Assembly (NCBI RefSeq): GCF_003334315.1
Contig: NZ_QOWR01000019.1
DNA length: 64,000 nucleotides
Origin: Escherichia coli
GTDB lineage: Bacteria; Pseudomonadota; Gammaproteobacteria; Enterobacterales; Enterobacteriaceae
Strand: one strand, 5' to 3'
Shown: positions 11,417-19,604 of the stretch, in pieces
Layout of the letters: the number at the start of each line of letters is the position of its first letter
Position numbering within the stretch: position 1 is the stretch's first letter
Made by a program: the position numbers and the translations under genes
Notes under the pieces: model-generated
Databases searched by the model: none
Told to the model about the DNA's origin: nothing
Seen by the model: the letters and a program-made list of their open reading frames with translations, nothing else

Positions 11417-13069
11417 TTACGCGCTCAACAGTTGCTTCATGTCTTCTTCAACAGTGGTGATAGAACGCAGGCCGAATTTCTCGTTCAGCACCGCCAGCAG
11501 GTCTGGTGTCAGGAAACCAGGTGCAGTCGGGCCGGTGACGATATTTTTCACGCCCAGAGAAAGCAGCGTCAGCAGAATGACGATCGCTTTCTGTTCAAAC
11601 CAGGAGAGCACCAGCGACAGCGGCAGATCGTTGACACCGCAGCCCAGTTTCTCTGCCAGAGTGACAGCCAGAATAATCGCTGAGTAAGCATCGTTACATT
11701 GACCTGCATCTACCAGACGCGGCAGACCTTCGATATCGCCAAACTCAAGTTTGTTAAAGCGATATTTACCACAGGCGAGGGTCAGGATCAGGCAGTCATC
11801 CGGCACGCTGGTGGCGAAATCGGTGAAGTAGTGGCGCTCGCCGCGTGCGCCGTCACAGCCACCAAGCAGGAAGATATGACGCAGTTTTTCACGGCTCACC
11901 AGATCAATCAGCGTATCAGCAGCGCCAAGCAGCGTCTGGCGACCAAAACCCACGGTGATAAGGTGCGGAATTTCGCTGTACGGGAAGCCTGCCATCTGTT
12001 GCGCCTGGGTGATAACCGCAGAGAAATCATCACCGTCCAGATGACGCACGCCAGGCCAGCCAACAATGCTGCGGGTCCAGATACGATCGTCATAAGCGCC
12101 TACGGTTGGGTCGATGATGCAGTTCGAGGTCATCACGATGGGGCCAGGGAAACGAGCGAACTCCACTTGCTGATTCTGCCAGCCGCTGCCGTAGTTACCG
12201 ACCAGATGCTTGAATTTACGCAGCTCCGGGTAGCCATGCGCAGGCAGCATTTCGCCGTGGGTGTAGACATTAACGCCCGTGCCTTCGGTCTGTTCCAGCA
12301 GGTTGTAGAGATCTTTGAGATCGTGACCGGAAATCAGAATGCATTTACCCGCCGTCGCTTTGACGTTGACCTGGGTTGGCGTCGGGTGACCGTATTTACC
12401 GGTTTCGCCTGCATCCAGAATGCTCATCACTTTGAAGTTCATCTGGCCGATTTCCATTGAACACTCAAGAAGCGCGTTCATATCGGCAGGCCAGGTCCCC
12501 AGCCACGCCATGATTTTATGGTACTGGGCATAAATATCGTTGTCGTATTGACCGAGAACATGCGCGTGTTCCATATAGGCCGCCGCACCTTTCAGGCCAT
12601 ACAGGCACAGCAGACGCAGGCCGAGAATGTTTTCGCCAATCGCCGCTTTATCTTTGTTAGGGGTAAATTCTGCTGCCTGACGTTGCAGCTCGCCGAGATC
12701 GTCGCTCACCAGTTGCAGGTCAGCCATCGGGTTATCGACGCGCGCGTTGGCATCTACAGCCAGGCATTGCGCTTTCAGCGCCTCGCGCAGGGCAATCGCT
12801 TCACGAGCGTAGCCGACAATACGCGGAGAATCGAAGTTAACGTTGGTCAGGGTTGAGAAAAAGGCACGTGGCGCGAAGCTGTCAACATCGTGGTTGATGA
12901 TGCCGTATTCACGCGCTTTTACCGCCCAGGCAGAAAGCCCTTGCAGCGCCGCGATGAGTAAATCCTGAAGGTCAGAAGTTTCCGCCGTTTTACCACACAT
13001 CCCCTGCGCGTATGAGCAGCCGTTTCCTGCCGGAGTACGGATAGTTTGTTCACATTGCACACAAAACAT
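11417..13069 (-). CDS. hcp: hybrid-cluster protein (hydroxylamine reductase)
   Basis: N-terminal cysteine cluster MFCVQCEQT; 550 aa from internal ATG. Confidence 0.92.
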
Positions 13070-13165
13070 GATCACACCTTTTAAAGTTATATTTAATATA
13101 CATGTTTAAGGTTAAGACGCTTAACGCGGGGATAAAAGGGATTTTTCATGCAACTTTAAGGGAGA

Positions 13166-13179
13166 TTGATTTAGCGCAA
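13166..13179. promoter_or_regulatory. FNR-like half-palindrome upstream of hcp
   Basis: ttgatttagcgcaa approximates TTGAT-N4-ATCAA about 100 bp upstream of hcp start; hcp is known to be anaerobically induced. Confidence 0.3.
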
Positions 13180-13212
13180 TTTTGGCGGCAGGGATCTACC
13201 GCCAGAGAGGTA

Positions 13213-14112
13213 TTACGCAGAGAAAAAGGCGATGAGGATCGGCACTAACAGGCTAAGAATAAAACCGTGAACAATTGCCGCCGGGACCATATCCAGCCCG
13301 CCAGTACGTTGAAGAACGGGCAGGGTGAAATCCATTGATGTGGCACCGCATAAGCCCAGTGCAGTAGAGCGGCTGCGGCGAATCAGCCCAGGGATCAACA
13401 TAATAGCAATCAGTTCACGGGCCAGATCATTAAAAAACGCCGCGCTCCCGATTACCGGGCCAAAAGATTCGGTCAATAAAATACCGGAAAGAGAATACCA
13501 GCCGAAACCGGAGGCCATTGCCAGCGCGGTATTGATGGGGAGATCAAGAATAAAGGCGTTAATTAAACCACCAATTAATGAACTGGCAACCACCACCACG
13601 GCGACAATCATTCCCCGGCGATTAAGGACAATCTGCTTTAAGGTCATGCCATTATTGCGCAACTGAATACCGACGAGGAAAAGTAGCAGAATTAACGTGT
13701 ATTCGCTGGCTTCGGTCGCGTGTTGTAAGAAAGCCAGTCCACTCAGACCAATGGCAAAACCAATCACTACTACGCCGCACAGTTTTAGCGACTCCAGCGC
13801 CATCGCAATACGCGACGGGAGTTTTTCTTGCTGATGGTGATTGCGCCATGGCAGGCCTCGCTCCAGCCACATCAGGGCGGCAATATTACATAGTAAAATA
13901 ACGGTAATACTGACAGCAGAATAATGCAGAATCGCCAACAGGTTACTGGCGAGGTTATCGAGAAACGCCAGACTGATACCCATAAAAAAGAGAATAAGGT
14001 AAACCATCCAGCTTAATAGCTGATTAATAACTTTTAATGCAGCTTTTTGGCGAAGCGGAATGAGGTAACCCACAATCAGGGGAACCAGAATGATTAACAG
14101 CCCAGAAAACAT
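13213..14112 (-). CDS. ybjE: inner-membrane lysine exporter YbjE/LysO
   Basis: multi-TM ORF; start placed at internal ATG (MFSGLLIIL) giving 299 aa. Confidence 0.88.
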   Translation of the reverse strand: MFSGLLIILVPLIVGYLIPLRQKAALKVINQLLSWMVYLILFFMGISLAFLDNLASNLLAILHYSAVSITVILLCNIAALMWLERGLPWRNHHQQEKLPSRIAMALESLKLCGVVVIGFAIGLSGLAFLQHATEASEYTLILLLFLVGIQLRNNGMTLKQIVLNRRGMIVAVVVVASSLIGGLINAFILDLPINTALAMASGFGWYSLSGILLTESFGPVIGSAAFFNDLARELIAIMLIPGLIRRSRSTALGLCGATSMDFTLPVLQRTGGLDMVPAAIVHGFILSLLVPILIAFFSA

Positions 14113-14567
14113 GAAAACCCAGTCCTTGCAAAGATGAAGTCGAAATGCGCGATGACACACTACTGAAAGCGGAAGGACGAGTAAAGTTGCAATTAAAAGG
14201 AAATGTTATGCATAAGGAGCAGTAGAGTATTCGTTTTCATTTAAAGATATTCTTGCGCTTTAATTACAAACTGCACCGATGTTGGTGGCGTCAAAATCGC
14301 CGAGGCGTTCCCTGAAGGCCGGGGCAGCCCACATGGATGTGGGCTGAGGGCGCGTTTTACAGGGATGTTACCTCGCGCCCGACCCGGTAGCCGTAAGGGA
14401 TAAGTCGAGGGCACCGCGCAGCGGCGATTTTGTTCGCCAGAGCCCGGGGGTGCAGGGGGCGGCGGCGATTGGCCGCCCCCTGCGCGCTCCTTGCGCCAGT
14501 GGCAATATGTGGCTTAGCTCATGAAAGGAGCGCAACAAGATGATGAATCAACATATAACAACATCTT

Positions 14568-14595
14568 AAAAAAAGGCCTGACATTACGCCAGGCC
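14568..14595 (-). terminator. rho-independent terminator of aqpZ
   Basis: hairpin ggcctg..caggcc preceded on + strand by A7 (U-run on minus strand) immediately 3' of aqpZ stop. Confidence 0.7.
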
Positions 14596-14606
14596 TTCTG
14601 CGTTAA

Positions 14607-15302
14607 TTAATCACGCTTTTCCAGCAGGGTCCGGTAAATCAGACCACCGATAATGCCGCCGACAATTGGCACCACCCAGAAGAACCACAGTTGTTCTAAT
14701 GCCCAGCCGCCCTGGAAGATAGCAACCGCGGTGCTGCGCGCCGGGTTAACAGAAGTGTTAGTCACCGGAATACTGATTAAGTGAATCAGGGTTAAGGCCA
14801 GACCAATAGCGATCGGCGCAAAACCTGCCGGAGCGAATTTGTCGGTTGCGCCGTGGATCACCAACAGGAAACCTGCACTCAATACCAGTTCAACTACCAG
14901 CGCGGAAAGCATGGAATAACCGCCTGGTGAATGCTCGCCATAACCGTTAGAAGCAAAACCGCTGGCTGCCGCGTCAAAACCCGTTTTACCACTGGCAATT
15001 AAATACAGCAGCGCTGCCGCAACAATACCGCCGACAACCTGGGCAATTACGTAGCCAACGACTTCTTTTGCCGGAAAACGTCCGCCAGCCCATAAACCAA
15101 TAGTGACCGCCGGGTTAAAATGACCACCAGAAATATGACCAACAGCAAAGGCCATCGTCAGAACGGTCAGACCGAACGCCAACGCCACGCCGGCAAAACC
15201 AATGCCTAATTCCGGGAAGCCTGCGGCCAGTACAGCACTACCACAGCCACCAAAAACAAGCCAGAAAGTACCAAAACATTCAGCTGCTAATTTTCTGAAC
15301 AT
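14607..15302 (-). CDS. aqpZ: aquaporin Z
   Basis: two NPA boxes ([14 protein letters not shown]) in MIP-family ORF; 231 aa from internal ATG. Confidence 0.95.
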
Positions 15303-15726
15303 ATCCACCTCAATTAAAAATTGACCCTGTGAAAAATATGGTCGTTTTATAGGGCCGTCGTAAAAAGTGACGACGGAAATAATGCGCGGCTATTTTAAAA
15401 ACGAAGGCGAGTCATTCACCAGATAAATAAATCCAGTAAATTTGATTTAGGGCAACAGCGGGTTACCCCATATAGTCGTTTGTCTGATTGACAGTGTAGT
15501 GCAAGCAAAAGATTTAATCCTTTAGGCGTAATAAAAAATAATTTATCATGCTAATTATTTGATTTTGTTATTTTTGCAGACTTATCAGCAAGAGGGAGTA
15601 TAACGCGATTATTCGCTCATTTTTCAGACATTTGCCATGCTTAAATGTGATGTCATCACGTATTAGCAAGGCCTTTCCCGTTATACTGCCAGCGTAAAGG
15701 ATAAGTCACATATTTCTGGAGGGGAT

Positions 15727-17385
15727 ATGATTCTTGAGCGCGTTGAAATTGTGGGTTTTCGCGGTATCAACCGTTTGTCGTTGATGCTGGAACAAAACAA
15801 CGTCCTGATTGGGGAGAACGCGTGGGGTAAATCCAGCTTGCTGGACGCCTTAACCCTGCTGCTATCGCCAGAATCAGATCTCTACCATTTTGAGCGCGAC
15901 GATTTCTGGTTCCCGCCGGGAGATATCAACGGGCGAGAACATCATCTGCATATTATTTTGACCTTCCGCGAATCGCTGCCAGGCCGACATCGGGTTCGCC
16001 GTTATCGGCCGCTGGAAGCGTGCTGGACGCCATGCACCGATGGCTATCACCGTATTTTTTATCGTCTGGAAGGGGAGAGTGCGGAAGACGGCAGCGTGAT
16101 GACACTGCGCAGTTTTCTCGATAAAGACGGACATCCGATTGATGTCGAGGATATTAACGATCAGGCACGCCATCTGGTGCGTTTAATGCCGGTGCTGCGC
16201 TTGCGTGATGCCCGTTTTATGCGCCGTATTCGTAACGGCACGGTGCCAAATGTCCCTAATGTGGAAGTCACCGCGCGCCAGCTCGATTTCCTCGCCCGTG
16301 AGTTATCCTCACATCCGCAAAATCTCTCTGATGGGCAGATTCGTCAGGGACTTTCCGCAATGGTACAGCTGCTTGAGCATTATTTCTCTGAGCAGGGGGC
16401 CGGACAGGCGCGATATCGTTTAATGCGGCGGCGAGCCAGCAATGAGCAACGAAGCTGGCGCTATCTGGATATCATCAACCGGATGATTGACCGACCTGGT
16501 GGGCGCTCGTATCGGGTTATTTTGCTCGGCCTGTTTGCTACTTTGTTGCAGGCAAAAGGCACATTGCGACTGGATAAAGACGCCCGTCCATTGTTGCTGA
16601 TCGAAGATCCAGAAACCCGTTTACACCCCATTATGCTTTCAGTTGCCTGGCATCTGTTGAATCTTCTGCCATTGCAGCGCATTGCCACCACCAACTCGGG
16701 TGAGTTGCTTTCGTTAACGCCGGTAGAGCATGTTTGCCGACTGGTACGTGAGTCCTCGCGCGTTGCCGCCTGGCGTCTGGGGCCGAGTGGCTTGAGTACC
16801 GAAGATAGCCGACGCATATCCTTTCACATTCGTTTTAACCGTCCGTCATCGCTGTTTGCACGCTGCTGGTTGCTGGTGGAAGGGGAAACGGAAACCTGGG
16901 TTATCAATGAACTGGCGCGTCAGTGCGGACATCATTTTGATGCCGAAGGGATCAAGGTCATTGAGTTTGCCCAGTCCGGGCTAAAGCCACTGGTTAAATT
17001 TGCCCGCCGAATGGGGATTGAATGGCATGTACTGGTCGATGGCGATGAAGCAGGGAAGAAATATGCCGCTACGGTACGCAGCCTGTTGAATAACGATCGG
17101 GAAGCCGAACGAGAACATTTAACGGCGTTACCGGCGCTGGATATGGAACATTTTATGTATCGCCAGGGATTTTCCGATGTGTTCCACCGCATGGCGCAAA
17201 TCCCGGAAAATGTACCGATGAATCTACGCAAAATTATCTCGAAAGCGATCCATCGCTCTTCCAAACCCGATCTTGCCATTGAAGTGGCAATGGAGGCAGG
17301 ACGTCGTGGTGTGGACTCCGTACCGACGCTGCTGAAAAAAATGTTCTCACGCGTGCTGTGGCTGGCGCGCGGTCGCGCGGATTAA
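15727..17385 (+). CDS. ybjD: OLD-family ATP-dependent nuclease-like protein (N-terminal ABC-type ATPase, C-terminal TOPRIM)
   Basis: Walker A GENAWGKSS near N-terminus; TOPRIM-like acidic motifs LLVEGETE and VLVDGDEAG in C-terminal third; 552 aa. Confidence 0.88.
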   Translation: MILERVEIVGFRGINRLSLMLEQNNVLIGENAWGKSSLLDALTLLLSPESDLYHFERDDFWFPPGDINGREHHLHIILTFRESLPGRHRVRRYRPLEACWTPCTDGYHRIFYRLEGESAEDGSVMTLRSFLDKDGHPIDVEDINDQARHLVRLMPVLRLRDARFMRRIRNGTVPNVPNVEVTARQLDFLARELSSHPQNLSDGQIRQGLSAMVQLLEHYFSEQGAGQARYRLMRRRASNEQRSWRYLDIINRMIDRPGGRSYRVILLGLFATLLQAKGTLRLDKDARPLLLIEDPETRLHPIMLSVAWHLLNLLPLQRIATTNSGELLSLTPVEHVCRLVRESSRVAAWRLGPSGLSTEDSRRISFHIRFNRPSSLFARCWLLVEGETETWVINELARQCGHHFDAEGIKVIEFAQSGLKPLVKFARRMGIEWHVLVDGDEAGKKYAATVRSLLNNDREAEREHLTALPALDMEHFMYRQGFSDVFHRMAQIPENVPMNLRKIISKAIHRSSKPDLAIEVAMEAGRRGVDSVPTLLKKMFSRVLWLARGRAD

Positions 17386-18374
17386 CCGCGAAACATCGTG
17401 GCCATTTGTGGCTGAATAGCGTCGAGCATCTCATAGCGCCGACGGTATTCAGCCCGTTTTTTACTGGCGATTTCGGCAATCTCTTTTCGTGCTATCTGTG
17501 CTGGAAGGCGGTAATGGCGTTCAGCATCACATACGCCGCCAACCGATTCCCAGAAAGCGTTGTAATCAGCGTGGATCTTGCCTTCTTTATCGCGATAACG
17601 CAGGCTGCGGTAAATATGCGTTTCATTGCTGACGGCAATAATCTGCTCTACCTGCAAACGTTGGGCAAACAGACAGGCCGCTTCCATCACGAGGCGTTTG
17701 GGAAATAGCCCGTGGCAGGCTTTCGTCGCATTCTGGATTTCCTGATGTGGAATTTCCCATTTTGCGCCTTGCAGTCCGCCAATAAACATCGTTCTTTTCC
17801 CCTGATATTCACACAGGGTAAACGTGATCTCTGCCAGAGGAATACCTTCGCTGTTGCGGAACAGGATTGTGCTGTCACCTTCTTTATCCATTGAGATCAT
17901 CATGGTCAGCTCAAGCGTGAACTGCTCGCCGTTTTTGCCTTCCAGCTTCGCCAGTTGCAGCCCGGGGGTATTCAAATATAAGCTGAATTCTTCCGCCGAC
18001 ATACATTCGCGGAGTAACGCATAATGGTAACGTAACGCCTCCAGCAATTGCTTACGGCTAAGATTCGCCGCAAGGTAAGGGCGATGCAGACGCACAGGCA
18101 GTCGCGGCTGGCGCGTTAACAATACATTGAGATTAGGCCAGTGGGAAAGTTCGTTCATCCACTCAACGCTTAAACGCGGCATAATCAACGAGCGCAGCAA
18201 AAATTTCTGGCGAAAACTACGGCGATGCCAGAATTTACCCGGCCGACACTGTCCACGTGCCAGACTAAGAAAAAGTGACAGGCTGCTGAGAGATTCAGAT
18301 GGCGTAAAGGTCCGTTCAGTTAGCTGCGACATATTCATGAAATCAATGGTTATACATGACGTCGATTTCACCAT
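17382..18374 (-). CDS. ybjX: DUF535/VirK-like protein YbjX
   Basis: ORF convergent with ybjD (4-nt overlap); true start may be an internal ATG (MSQLTER). Confidence 0.8.
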   Translation of the reverse strand: MVKSTSCITIDFMNMSQLTERTFTPSESLSSLSLFLSLARGQCRPGKFWHRRSFRQKFLLRSLIMPRLSVEWMNELSHWPNLNVLLTRQPRLPVRLHRPYLAANLSRKQLLEALRYHYALLRECMSAEEFSLYLNTPGLQLAKLEGKNGEQFTLELTMMISMDKEGDSTILFRNSEGIPLAEITFTLCEYQGKRTMFIGGLQGAKWEIPHQEIQNATKACHGLFPKRLVMEAACLFAQRLQVEQIIAVSNETHIYRSLRYRDKEGKIHADYNAFWESVGGVCDAERHYRLPAQIARKEIAEIASKKRAEYRRRYEMLDAIQPQMATMFRG

Positions 18375-18429
18375 TGCGTATCTTAACCAAACATCAATAG
18401 TGTGATTACTAACGTAAATTTTAGGGGTT

Positions 18430-18446
18430 TGTTGATATTTCGTTGA
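18430..18446. promoter_or_regulatory. PhoP-box-like direct repeat in ybjX-macA divergent intergenic region
   Basis: tgttga-N5-cgttga hexamer direct repeat resembles (T/G)GTTTA-N5-(T/G)GTTTA; PhoPQ control of ybjX/macA is reported in the literature. Confidence 0.35.
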
Positions 18447-18488
18447 AGTTAATGACCCGGATTGGCATATGGAGTATTCAGAATATTT

Positions 18489-19604
18489 ATGAAAAAGCGG
18501 AAAACCGTGAAGAAGCGTTACGTTATTGCGCTGGTGATAGTCATCGCCGGACTGATTACGTTATGGAGAATTCTTAACGCACCCGTGCCGACTTATCAGA
18601 CACTGATTGTGCGCCCCGGTGATTTACAGCAAAGCGTGCTGGCGACCGGAAAGCTGGACGCGCTGCGTAAGGTTGACGTGGGCGCGCAGGTCAGCGGTCA
18701 GTTGAAAACGCTGTCGGTGGCGATTGGCGATAAAGTAAAAAAAGACCAGCTTTTAGGGGTCATTGATCCTGAACAGGCTGAAAACCAGATCAAGGAGGTC
18801 GAAGCAACGCTGATGGAGCTACGCGCGCAGCGGCAGCAGGCGAAAGCGGAGCTGAAACTGGCGCGGGTGACGTATTCCCGTCAGCAACGTCTGGCACAAA
18901 CGCAGGCGGTTTCACAGCAGGATCTCGACACCGCCGCGACGGAGATGGCTGTGAAACAGGCGCAAATTGGCACCATTGACGCGCAAATCAAGCGCAATCA
19001 GGCTTCTCTCGATACGGCTAAAACCAATCTCGATTACACTCGCATCGTTGCCCCGATGGCCGGGGAAGTCACGCAAATCACCACTCTGCAAGGCCAGACG
19101 GTGATTGCCGCACAACAAGCACCGAACATTCTGACGCTGGCAGATATGAGCACCATGCTGGTAAAAGCGCAGGTTTCTGAAGCGGATGTAATCCACCTGA
19201 AGCCGGGGCAAAAAGCCTGGTTTACGGTGCTTGGCGATCCACTGACGCGCTACGAGGGGCAAATCAAGGATGTACTACCGACGCCGGAAAAGGTTAACGA
19301 CGCTATTTTCTATTACGCCCGTTTTGAAGTCCCCAACCCCAATGGTTTGCTGCGGCTGGATATGACTGCGCAAGTGCATATTCAGCTCACCGATGTGAAA
19401 AATGTGCTGACGATCCCTCTGTCGGCGTTAGGCGATCCGGTTGGCGATAATCGTTATAAAGTCAAATTGTTGCGTAATGGTGAAACACGCGAGCGTGAAG
19501 TGACGATTGGCGCACGTAACGATACCGATGTTGAGATTGTCAAAGGGCTTGAAGCGGGCGATGAAGTGGTGATTGGTGAGGCCAAACCAGGAGCTGCACA
19601 ATGA
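18489..19604 (+). CDS. macA: macrolide efflux membrane fusion protein MacA
   Basis: HlyD-family coiled-coil periplasmic adaptor; ATGA overlap with macB. Confidence 0.92.

Follow-up and report, generated by a model that had tools for sequence, protein, structure and literature searches.

ybjD of Escherichia coli, a stand-alone OLD-family ATPase–Toprim gene with the conservation of a core chromosomal gene

We analyzed ybjD (b0876), a gene on a 64,000-nucleotide stretch of Escherichia coli DNA (contig NZ_QOWR01000019.1; hereafter the window), and compared it with the described systems of the OLD family. P2 Old and the OLD protein of Vibrio cholerae (Vc OLD), both of proven anti-phage activity, are single-gene ATPase–Toprim proteins of 500–600 aa, as is YbjD. 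The gene for P2 Old is carried by a phage, and its product is lethal to recBC cells and depends on both domains, whereas YbjD spares a recBC-ts strain and has a phenotype that is independent of its Toprim domain (PMC13261556); Vc OLD depends on its ATP-binding residues (PMC12392090). GajA, a Class 2 OLD (PDB 8sm3/8u7i; PADLOC model PDLC00094), is the best sequence, profile and fold match to YbjD, and the OLD protein of Thermus scotoductus (Ts OLD; PDB 6p74) represents Class 1. Cran1, an OLD-family ATPase/nickase of Sulfolobales, is lineage-conserved and apparently non-antiviral, and provides a precedent for a cellular role (PMC12796447). Cran1 is archaeal, essential and cell-cycle regulated, whereas ybjD is non-essential, and the two are likened by description.

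YbjD itself has been studied. Schiltz et al. (2019) started from YbjD as query when they defined Class 1 and Class 2 OLDs, and placed E. coli in Class 1 (PMC6755086), and Atahualpa et al. (2026) characterized the gene and proposed the name oldB (PMC13261556). Their gene is the one in the window, as the numbering of K35 and of a Toprim domain from residue 378 fits their constructs. They reported that ybjD is expressed and non-essential and that the susceptibility of the Keio knock-out to 68 BASEL phages is unchanged. Arabinose-induced ybjD gave fewer plaques of Bas18 and Bas20 and smaller plaques of Bas64–68. This effect was abolished by deletion of the ATPase domain, unaltered by deletion of the Toprim domain or mutation of its three acidic residues, and retained by the K35A variant, which was more toxic. 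Unlike P2 Old, YbjD was not lethal to a recBC-ts strain (PMC13261556). Our literature search found no biochemistry on YbjD, and the other papers that mention ybjD or b0876 gave no functional data. Gene, family and class were all known beforehand, and the interpretation given in an earlier, sequence-only reading of the window, that of a stand-alone OLD-family ATPase/Toprim nuclease, is correct but had been published. Core-genome status, synteny, selection and the relationship to DUF2813 and GajA are absent from Schiltz 2019 and Atahualpa 2026 and are new here.

The following features define the gene and its two parts.

15727..17385, plus strand: ybjD (b0876; proposed name oldB), coding sequence of 552 aa plus stop, ATG start
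15727..16851, plus strand: ABC-type ATPase region (Pfam DUF2813), residues 1–375
16852..17382, plus strand: OLD-type Toprim domain plus C-terminal helices, residues 376–552

The 552-aa reading frame described earlier was borne out in its position, and the RefSeq ybjD entry, 'ATP-dependent endonuclease', is 100% identical to the window sequence.

Distribution of ybjD and selection on it

Whether ybjD is core or accessory had been raised by the sequence-only reading, and the gene proved to be core: it is present in 5425 of 5426 complete E. coli genomes at ≥95% identity, usually as a single copy. In a scan of one genome per species, a relative was found in at least 492 species, and the best 80, all Enterobacterales, were examined further. 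In these the block hcp-lysO-(aqpZ)-ybjD-(ybjX)-macA-macB recurs almost without exception, with ybjX missing from about 20 of the examined loci and aqpZ from several. The frame is intact in nearly all 80 species (about 550 aa, matched over approximately residues 1–552). Identity to E. coli YbjD parallels that of macA, macB and lysO (about 91% in Citrobacter, 64% in Yersinia and 56% in Proteus), and the GC content of ybjD, both overall and at third codon positions (GC3), is that of its neighbors.

Mobile elements were searched as well. The sole match in the GenBank phage set was P2 old (28% identity over one third of the protein). High-identity 'plasmid' matches were mostly megabase-sized records or pieces with ybjD–ybjX in their chromosomal context. 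Among 2.9 million viral contigs (IMG/VR) there were two matches, an E. coli host flank and a Gabija locus (L096). The first, 100% identical, had been a candidate viral ybjD and was rejected as host flank carrying aqpZ, ybjX and macA. Patchy presence, a variable site, association with elements and fast turnover, the traits of mobile or accessory defense genes, are not those of ybjD. Class 1 OLDs counted as defense occur in 0.45% of genomes (PMC12392090) and ybjD is core and syntenic; therefore, the YbjD lineage behaves differently. GajA, too, is accessory and mobile, whereas ybjD is core. We conclude that ybjD is a chromosomal, vertically inherited core gene.

In the PHROGs collection, phrog_4747 (profile length 610) matches YbjD at 4.6e-116. 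No source of this family was traced in the GenBank phage set, and at most one distant viral contig in IMG/VR; its origin may lie in prophage predictions that extended into host DNA or in Gabija-carrying prophages.

Selection was estimated as the ratio of nonsynonymous to synonymous substitution rates (dN/dS) by the Nei–Gojobori method, in 13 comparisons against E. coli, with dS unsaturated within Escherichia. For ybjD, dN/dS was 0.009–0.017 against other Escherichia, with a median of 0.040 over all 13 comparisons. The neighboring genes gave 0.037 (hcp), 0.044 (lysO), 0.044 (aqpZ), 0.058 (macA), 0.057 (macB) and 0.072 (ybjX). Within ybjD the value was lower for the Toprim domain (0.029) than for the ATPase region (0.046). 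Thus, ybjD is under strong purifying selection, strongest on the Toprim domain, and behaves like a strictly conserved housekeeping gene, unlike a typical mobile phage-defense gene. Because the strongest selection falls on a nuclease that is dispensable in the published phenotype, the native job is probably a conserved cellular task; the selected function probably needs the nuclease and was probably missed by the published overexpression assay.

Architecture, active sites and class

The ABC-type ATPase at the N-terminus and the Toprim-like domain at the C-terminus proposed from sequence are supported alike by Pfam, PADLOC, PDB searches and an AlphaFold model. Pfam DUF2813 covers residues 1–375 (E=3.5e-160, 534 bits), far beyond chance, and ABC/SMC-type P-loop families also match the N-terminus. 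The profile search suggested earlier for the C-terminal domain identified it as OLD-like_TOPRIM (residues 376–440, E=7.8e-16). The AlphaFold (AF2) model, built on 65 diverse relatives, is confident, with a predicted local distance difference test score (pLDDT) of 85.9 and a predicted template-modeling score (pTM) of 0.83. Residue counts below refer to 65 family representatives at 28–90% identity, and the motifs are located as follows.

15811..15837, plus strand: Walker A/P-loop GENAWGKSS, residues 29–37, with Lys35
16207..16566, plus strand: helical insertion in the ATPase, predicted dimerization domain, residues about 161–280 (AF2 model)
16591..16629, plus strand: Walker B and D-loop LLLIEDPETRLHP, residues 289–301, with Glu293 and His300
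16684..16710, plus strand: H-loop region ATTNSGELL, residues 320–328, with Asn323 replacing the usual His
16879..16893, plus strand: EGETE (Glu385, Glu387, Glu389), Toprim glutamates, candidate metal A/metal B ligands
17038..17046, plus strand: DGD (Asp438, Asp440), Toprim DxD motif, metal A
17140..17148, plus strand: DME (Asp472, Glu474), candidate second half of the metal B site
17263..17265, plus strand: Lys513, invariant, candidate catalytic lysine

The motifs quoted in the sequence-only reading fall at residues 29–37 (GENAWGKSS), 382–389 (LLVEGETE) and 435–443 (VLVDGDEAG). In the Toprim domain, E385, E387 and E389 are invariant (65/65), and the spacing of EGETE equals that of E377/D381 in Ts OLD and E398/E402 in P2 Old (PMC7049728). 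D438 is kept in 64 and D440 in all 65 representatives, and DGD aligns with the 'DND' motif of GajA. D472 (64/65) and E474 (65/65) may serve at metal B, judging by their position relative to D541/E543 of P2 Old and S478/E480 of Ts OLD (PMC7049728). K513 and P514 are both invariant (65/65), and K513 would be the equivalent of K550 in P2 Old. Of the 18 columns that are invariant overall, 16 fall from residue 362 onward, in or just before the Toprim domain, and the ATPase motifs vary more than the Toprim residues.

In Walker A, G29 and G34 are near-invariant, and position 35 is Lys in 58 representatives and Arg in six, with Arg or Ser together in 7/65. E293 is kept in 59 and H300 in 64 representatives; the Walker B/D-loop segment aligns with 'IYLIEEPEISLH' of GajA, and its Glu-to-His spacing (+7) is that of E276/H283 in Ts OLD (PMC7049728). 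The H-loop region aligns with 'STHSPELL' of GajA. N323 is invariant in five aligned Enterobacterales sequences, and across the 65 representatives this position is Asn in 39, Gln in 10, His in 10 and Tyr in five. Ts OLD has His here, whereas YbjD has Asn; we considered this replacement as a novel feature and rejected it, since Schiltz 2020 already has Asn among Class 1 OLDs (PMC7049728). The insertion consists in the AF2 model of helices 177–195, 202–220, 241–255 and 260–277 between ATPase strands, with low-confidence loops at 162–176 and 222–241, and is the least conserved segment of YbjD (0.29). The predicted model aligns with full-length Ts OLD and GajA, and the counterpart of the insert in Ts OLD is the dimerization domain (PMC7049728); YbjD may dimerize through this insert.

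Comparisons with known proteins gave a consistent placement. The best PADLOC matches were the GajA model PDLC00094 (6.8e-80; 267 bits, partial) and the Old model (1.9e-24). A PDB search with a profile of five Enterobacterales orthologs returned GajA (6e-12) and Thermus scotoductus OLD (8e-9), and Foldseek with the YbjD model returned GajA (2e-18), Ts OLD (4e-16) and the retron Eco8 OLD (1e-13); after the OLDs, the ATPase fold is nearest to the heads of SMC, Rad50 and RecF. YbjD has the Walker A, Walker B, D-loop and H-loop of OLD proteins as well as the Glu, DxD and second-metal acidic residues, and it is an OLD-family ATPase–Toprim enzyme. Identity is 17–21% to Ts OLD and, over no more than one third of the protein, about 28% to P2 Old. 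After the DME motif, YbjD has about 78 residues in four predicted helices, whereas Ts OLD has about 48. The length of 552 aa fits Class 1 OLDs, which have about 500–600 aa, are shorter than those of Class 2 and lack the C-terminal helical domain of that class. However, 164 of the 204 residues of the C-terminal region of the Class 2 Bp OLD align with the YbjD model, so that, with the four helices, the C-terminus of YbjD seems to resemble Class 2 more than it does Ts OLD.

The published definition of the classes is context-based, and by it ybjD falls in Class 1 (stand-alone OLDs), because it lacks a helicase, retron or AriB partner. The neighbors lysO, aqpZ, ybjX and macAB include no gene for a helicase, a reverse transcriptase or a separate Toprim protein, and no GajB helicase lies beside ybjD in the window or in the recovered Enterobacterales loci. 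PADLOC models matched none of the four neighbors lysO, aqpZ, ybjX and macA, in agreement with the earlier description of a single gene without an adjoining helicase. The same search found GajB at 882 bits directly after GajA in L096, which served as a positive control. The retron-associated Class 3 was rejected, with no reverse transcriptase gene among the neighbors and no relevant Rfam match in 13000–19000, where Rfam gave one sub-threshold, unrelated match and nothing else. The NCBIfam model of the retron Eco8 effector matches the P-loop only, at 20.6 bits where the cut-off is 250; NCBIfam as a whole gave P-loop matches alone, far under every curated cut-off, and no curated family name. PARIS (Class 4) was rejected too, since its AriA ATPase and AriB Toprim are separate proteins and YbjD holds both parts in one. 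Accordingly, of the architecture attributed earlier to Old, GajA and AriA, the likeness to Old and GajA stood and that to AriA did not, as AriA is the ATPase alone and AriB carries the Toprim domain (PMC12409363); the PADLOC AriA model matches residues 1–51 only. A hidden partner in ybjX was likewise rejected: it is missing from about 20 loci, reaches 46–77% identity, lies 137 nt away in Yersinia and has no PADLOC match.

The relationship to GajA is close but not one of identity. The GajA of L096 is 31% identical to YbjD over the full length, and Pfam DUF2813 covers both, with 205 bits for L096 GajA versus 534 for YbjD. PDLC00094 gives YbjD a partial 267 bits versus 757 bits, full length, for the genuine GajA; YbjD is related to that subfamily without belonging to it. 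Among the top 150 family representatives, about half are at least as close to L096 GajA as to YbjD. In five distant DUF2813 representatives with informative contigs there is no helicase downstream and the surrounding genes are ordinary, with folE, moeA and phosphotransferase system (PTS) genes on a Vibrio-type contig and cysS and nrdAB on another. Named family members come from Vibrio, Motilimonas, Tatumella and Acidobacteria. The DUF2813 branch thus mixes Gabija-type and stand-alone members, and YbjD is a stand-alone member fixed in Enterobacterales.

Two observations on relatives were made in passing. L096 (IMG/VR contig 3300021604_000070, 3503–7131), from a contig predicted to be viral, carries a whole Gabija locus: the genes for GajA (570 aa) and GajB (639 aa) share 4 nt, and a reading frame of 1120 aa lies directly upstream. 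Very long DUF2813/OLD-Toprim proteins of 1046–1867 aa also occur (P0150 and P0162–P0196 in the representatives library; L091); in P0170, an insertion of ~225 aa splits the ATPase and ~350 unannotated aa follow the Toprim domain.

Native role of YbjD

We consider it likely that ybjD is a vertically inherited single-gene OLD whose product is an ATPase-gated, two-metal Toprim nuclease with a cellular rather than an accessory-defense role. In the mechanism that we propose, an SMC/Rad50/RecF-like ABC ATPase with a helical insertion would be followed by the two-metal nuclease, and YbjD would form a homo-oligomer through the insert, by analogy with Ts OLD, GajA and Vc OLD. Nucleotide binding at the ABC heads would gate or restrain the complex, which is consistent with the greater toxicity of K35A. 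The Toprim site would nick or cleave nucleic acid. Candidate substrates are DNA, on which Ts OLD, GajA, Vc OLD and Cran1 act, and tRNA, the target of P2 Old and AriB. The selected native job would not be typical accessory phage defense but, probably, conserved surveillance or maintenance of nucleic acid in the cell. What calls for explanation is a mismatch: the published weak overexpression effect is nuclease-free, whereas the catalytic residues and the locus are held fixed across Enterobacterales.

Several points weigh against this account. The nuclease activity, substrate, ATPase activity and oligomeric state of YbjD rest on homology and a predicted model. Mutation or deletion of the Toprim domain was without effect and K35A kept its phenotype, so that the gating model is hypothetical for YbjD (PMC13261556). 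No phenotype whatever has been reported for the knock-out, which makes 'housekeeping' a tentative term, and conservation says that a function is selected, not which one. Moreover, genuine Gabija GajA proteins sit in the same DUF2813 branch and the PHROGs family match is strong. A defense origin of ybjD, and possibly a defense function, is plausible. We tentatively weigh a conserved cellular role slightly above dedicated defense.

A dedicated anti-phage gene (the Class 1 OLD 'OldB'), sensing infection, acting by ATPase-driven toxicity or abortive infection and maintained by selection, would fit the curbing of Bas18 and Bas20 and the shrunken plaques of Bas64–68 upon induction, the requirement for the ATPase domain and the toxicity of K35A (PMC13261556). 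Its characterized bacterial relatives, P2 Old, Vc OLD, GajA and the retron Eco8 OLD, are all defensive, and the GajA and Old models as top PADLOC matches, the 31% full-length identity to Gabija GajA and phrog_4747 (4.6e-116) point the same way. However, the knock-out is unchanged with 68 phages, and the effect needs overexpression, concerns few phages and is independent of the Toprim domain and of Lys35 (PMC13261556); the nuclease dispensable for it is the most constrained part of the protein. The gene is core in E. coli, syntenic in 80 species and as low in dN/dS as its housekeeping neighbors, and phages, true plasmids and viral contigs lack it, while Class 1 defense OLDs are found in 0.45% of genomes (PMC12392090). 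We therefore regard dedicated defense as rather unlikely. The specific proposal that YbjD is a genome-maintenance or chromosome-associated, ATP-regulated nickase, a bacterial counterpart of Cran1 in replication, repair or recombination, accords with the housekeeping-like conservation, with distant DUF2813 relatives that stand alone among housekeeping genes (folE, moeA, PTS; cysS, nrdAB), with an ATPase fold that after the OLDs is closest to SMC, Rad50 and RecF heads, and with the precedent of Cran1, by which an OLD-family protein can have a non-defense, cell-cycle role (PMC12796447). It appears doubtful all the same: ybjD is non-essential with no DNA-damage or growth phenotype reported, no LexA-like box, sought as a hint of SOS control, was found upstream, no repair gene is a conserved neighbor, and ybjD is not lethal in the recBC-ts background, unlike P2 Old (PMC13261556).

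That the Toprim domain acts on RNA instead of DNA, by cleavage of the tRNA anticodon arm or by rRNA/tRNA processing, is suggested by P2 Old, which cuts the tRNA anticodon arm (PMC12445682), by PARIS AriB, a tRNA-cleaving Toprim nuclease (PMC12409363), and by the resemblance of the OLD active site to RNase M5 (PMC6755086). We think it improbable, as cleavage or nicking of DNA in vitro has been seen with each of Ts OLD, Bp OLD, GajA, Vc OLD and Cran1, and the C-terminal region of YbjD is structurally nearest to the DNA-cleaving Class 2 OLD domain; no sequence feature of YbjD discriminates between the substrates. A decaying, functionless relic of an old defense system (GajA minus GajB) would suit a knock-out without phenotype (PMC13261556) and the presence of Gabija GajA among the relatives, but a dN/dS of 0.01–0.04, a frame intact in nearly all 80 species, catalytic residues invariant at both active sites and a conserved −10 element and ribosome-binding site speak otherwise. 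Because of the selection analysis, this explanation is effectively refuted.

Within the preferred account of a cellular ATPase–Toprim nuclease, we tentatively suggest that the YbjD lineage may be a domesticated GajA-like (DUF2813) offshoot with a Toprim-dependent cellular function, a bacterial analog of Cran1, and that the reported anti-phage effect may arise incidentally when the ATPase domain is overexpressed. Should the native role prove cellular, ybjD would offer a tractable system in E. coli for studying how a host makes use of a defense-type ATPase–nuclease, and the set of uncharacterized E. coli genes would shrink by one. A stand-alone OLD nuclease is strictly retained here despite a knock-out with no known phenotype.

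Upstream region and flanking sequence

The earlier placement of ybjD between aqpZ and a convergent ybjX agrees with the coordinates: aqpZ (14607–15302, minus strand) lies upstream and is divergent from ybjD, and ybjX (17382–18338, minus strand) lies downstream, with macAB beyond. The AT-rich upstream stretch noted before corresponds to the spacer of 424 bp (GC 0.36–0.38 versus 0.51 for the window). Its elements and the downstream junction are given below.

15303..15726, no strand: aqpZ–ybjD divergent intergenic region, 424 bp, AT-rich, GC 0.36–0.38
15682..15687, plus strand: −10-like hexamer TATACT, likely ybjD promoter element, about 40 nt before the ATG
15718..15722, plus strand: Shine–Dalgarno GGAGG, conserved in the upstream alignment
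17382..17385, no strand: TTAA, overlapping stop codons of ybjD (plus) and ybjX (minus), a palindrome of four shared bases

The spacer is mostly unconserved across Enterobacteriaceae. In an alignment of 14 sequences from this family (the E. coli window and 13 loci), 'CG(C/T)TATACT' is the sole conserved block upstream of the ribosome-binding site, and TATACT within it is the likely promoter element of ybjD. A consensus scan of the spacer found no full sigma-70 consensus, and Rfam found no family there. The most plausible reading of the spacer is that aqpZ and ybjD, which diverge from it, share it as regulatory space. In E. coli GABEEC10 (locus L002), a Mu-like prophage with Gam, Mor and gp16 family genes lies in this spacer, ~260 bp upstream of an intact ybjD, at a position equivalent to about 15309–15630 of the window. 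Upstream of the Edwardsiella ybjD ortholog is one of the two strongest binding peaks of the xenogeneic nucleoid protein EnrR (PMC9023278), and in uropathogenic E. coli a cathelicidin-type peptide mildly induces ybjD alongside arn and mar genes (PMC6737244).

On the downstream side, the overlap of the stop codons leaves no space for a terminator between ybjD and ybjX, and the pair has been cataloged as a convergent 'excludon' (PMC12288877). The overlap is not kept in Yersinia, where 137 nt separate the two genes. ybjX (VirK/YbjX family) evolves far faster than all of its neighbors, with 46–77% identity versus 80–95% for the others and dN/dS up to 0.3, and is absent from, for example, Klebsiella, Raoultella and Proteus (window 17382–18338 and loci L003–L085).

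Further upstream, the lysO–aqpZ spacer (14161–14606) has an unusually high GC content, up to 0.61. Within it are a 16-nt inverted repeat (14292–14307/14417–14432), a short direct repeat and a sub-threshold Rfam match to TwoAYGGAY (30.6 bits versus a cut-off of 43); it may represent a REP-type extragenic repeat.

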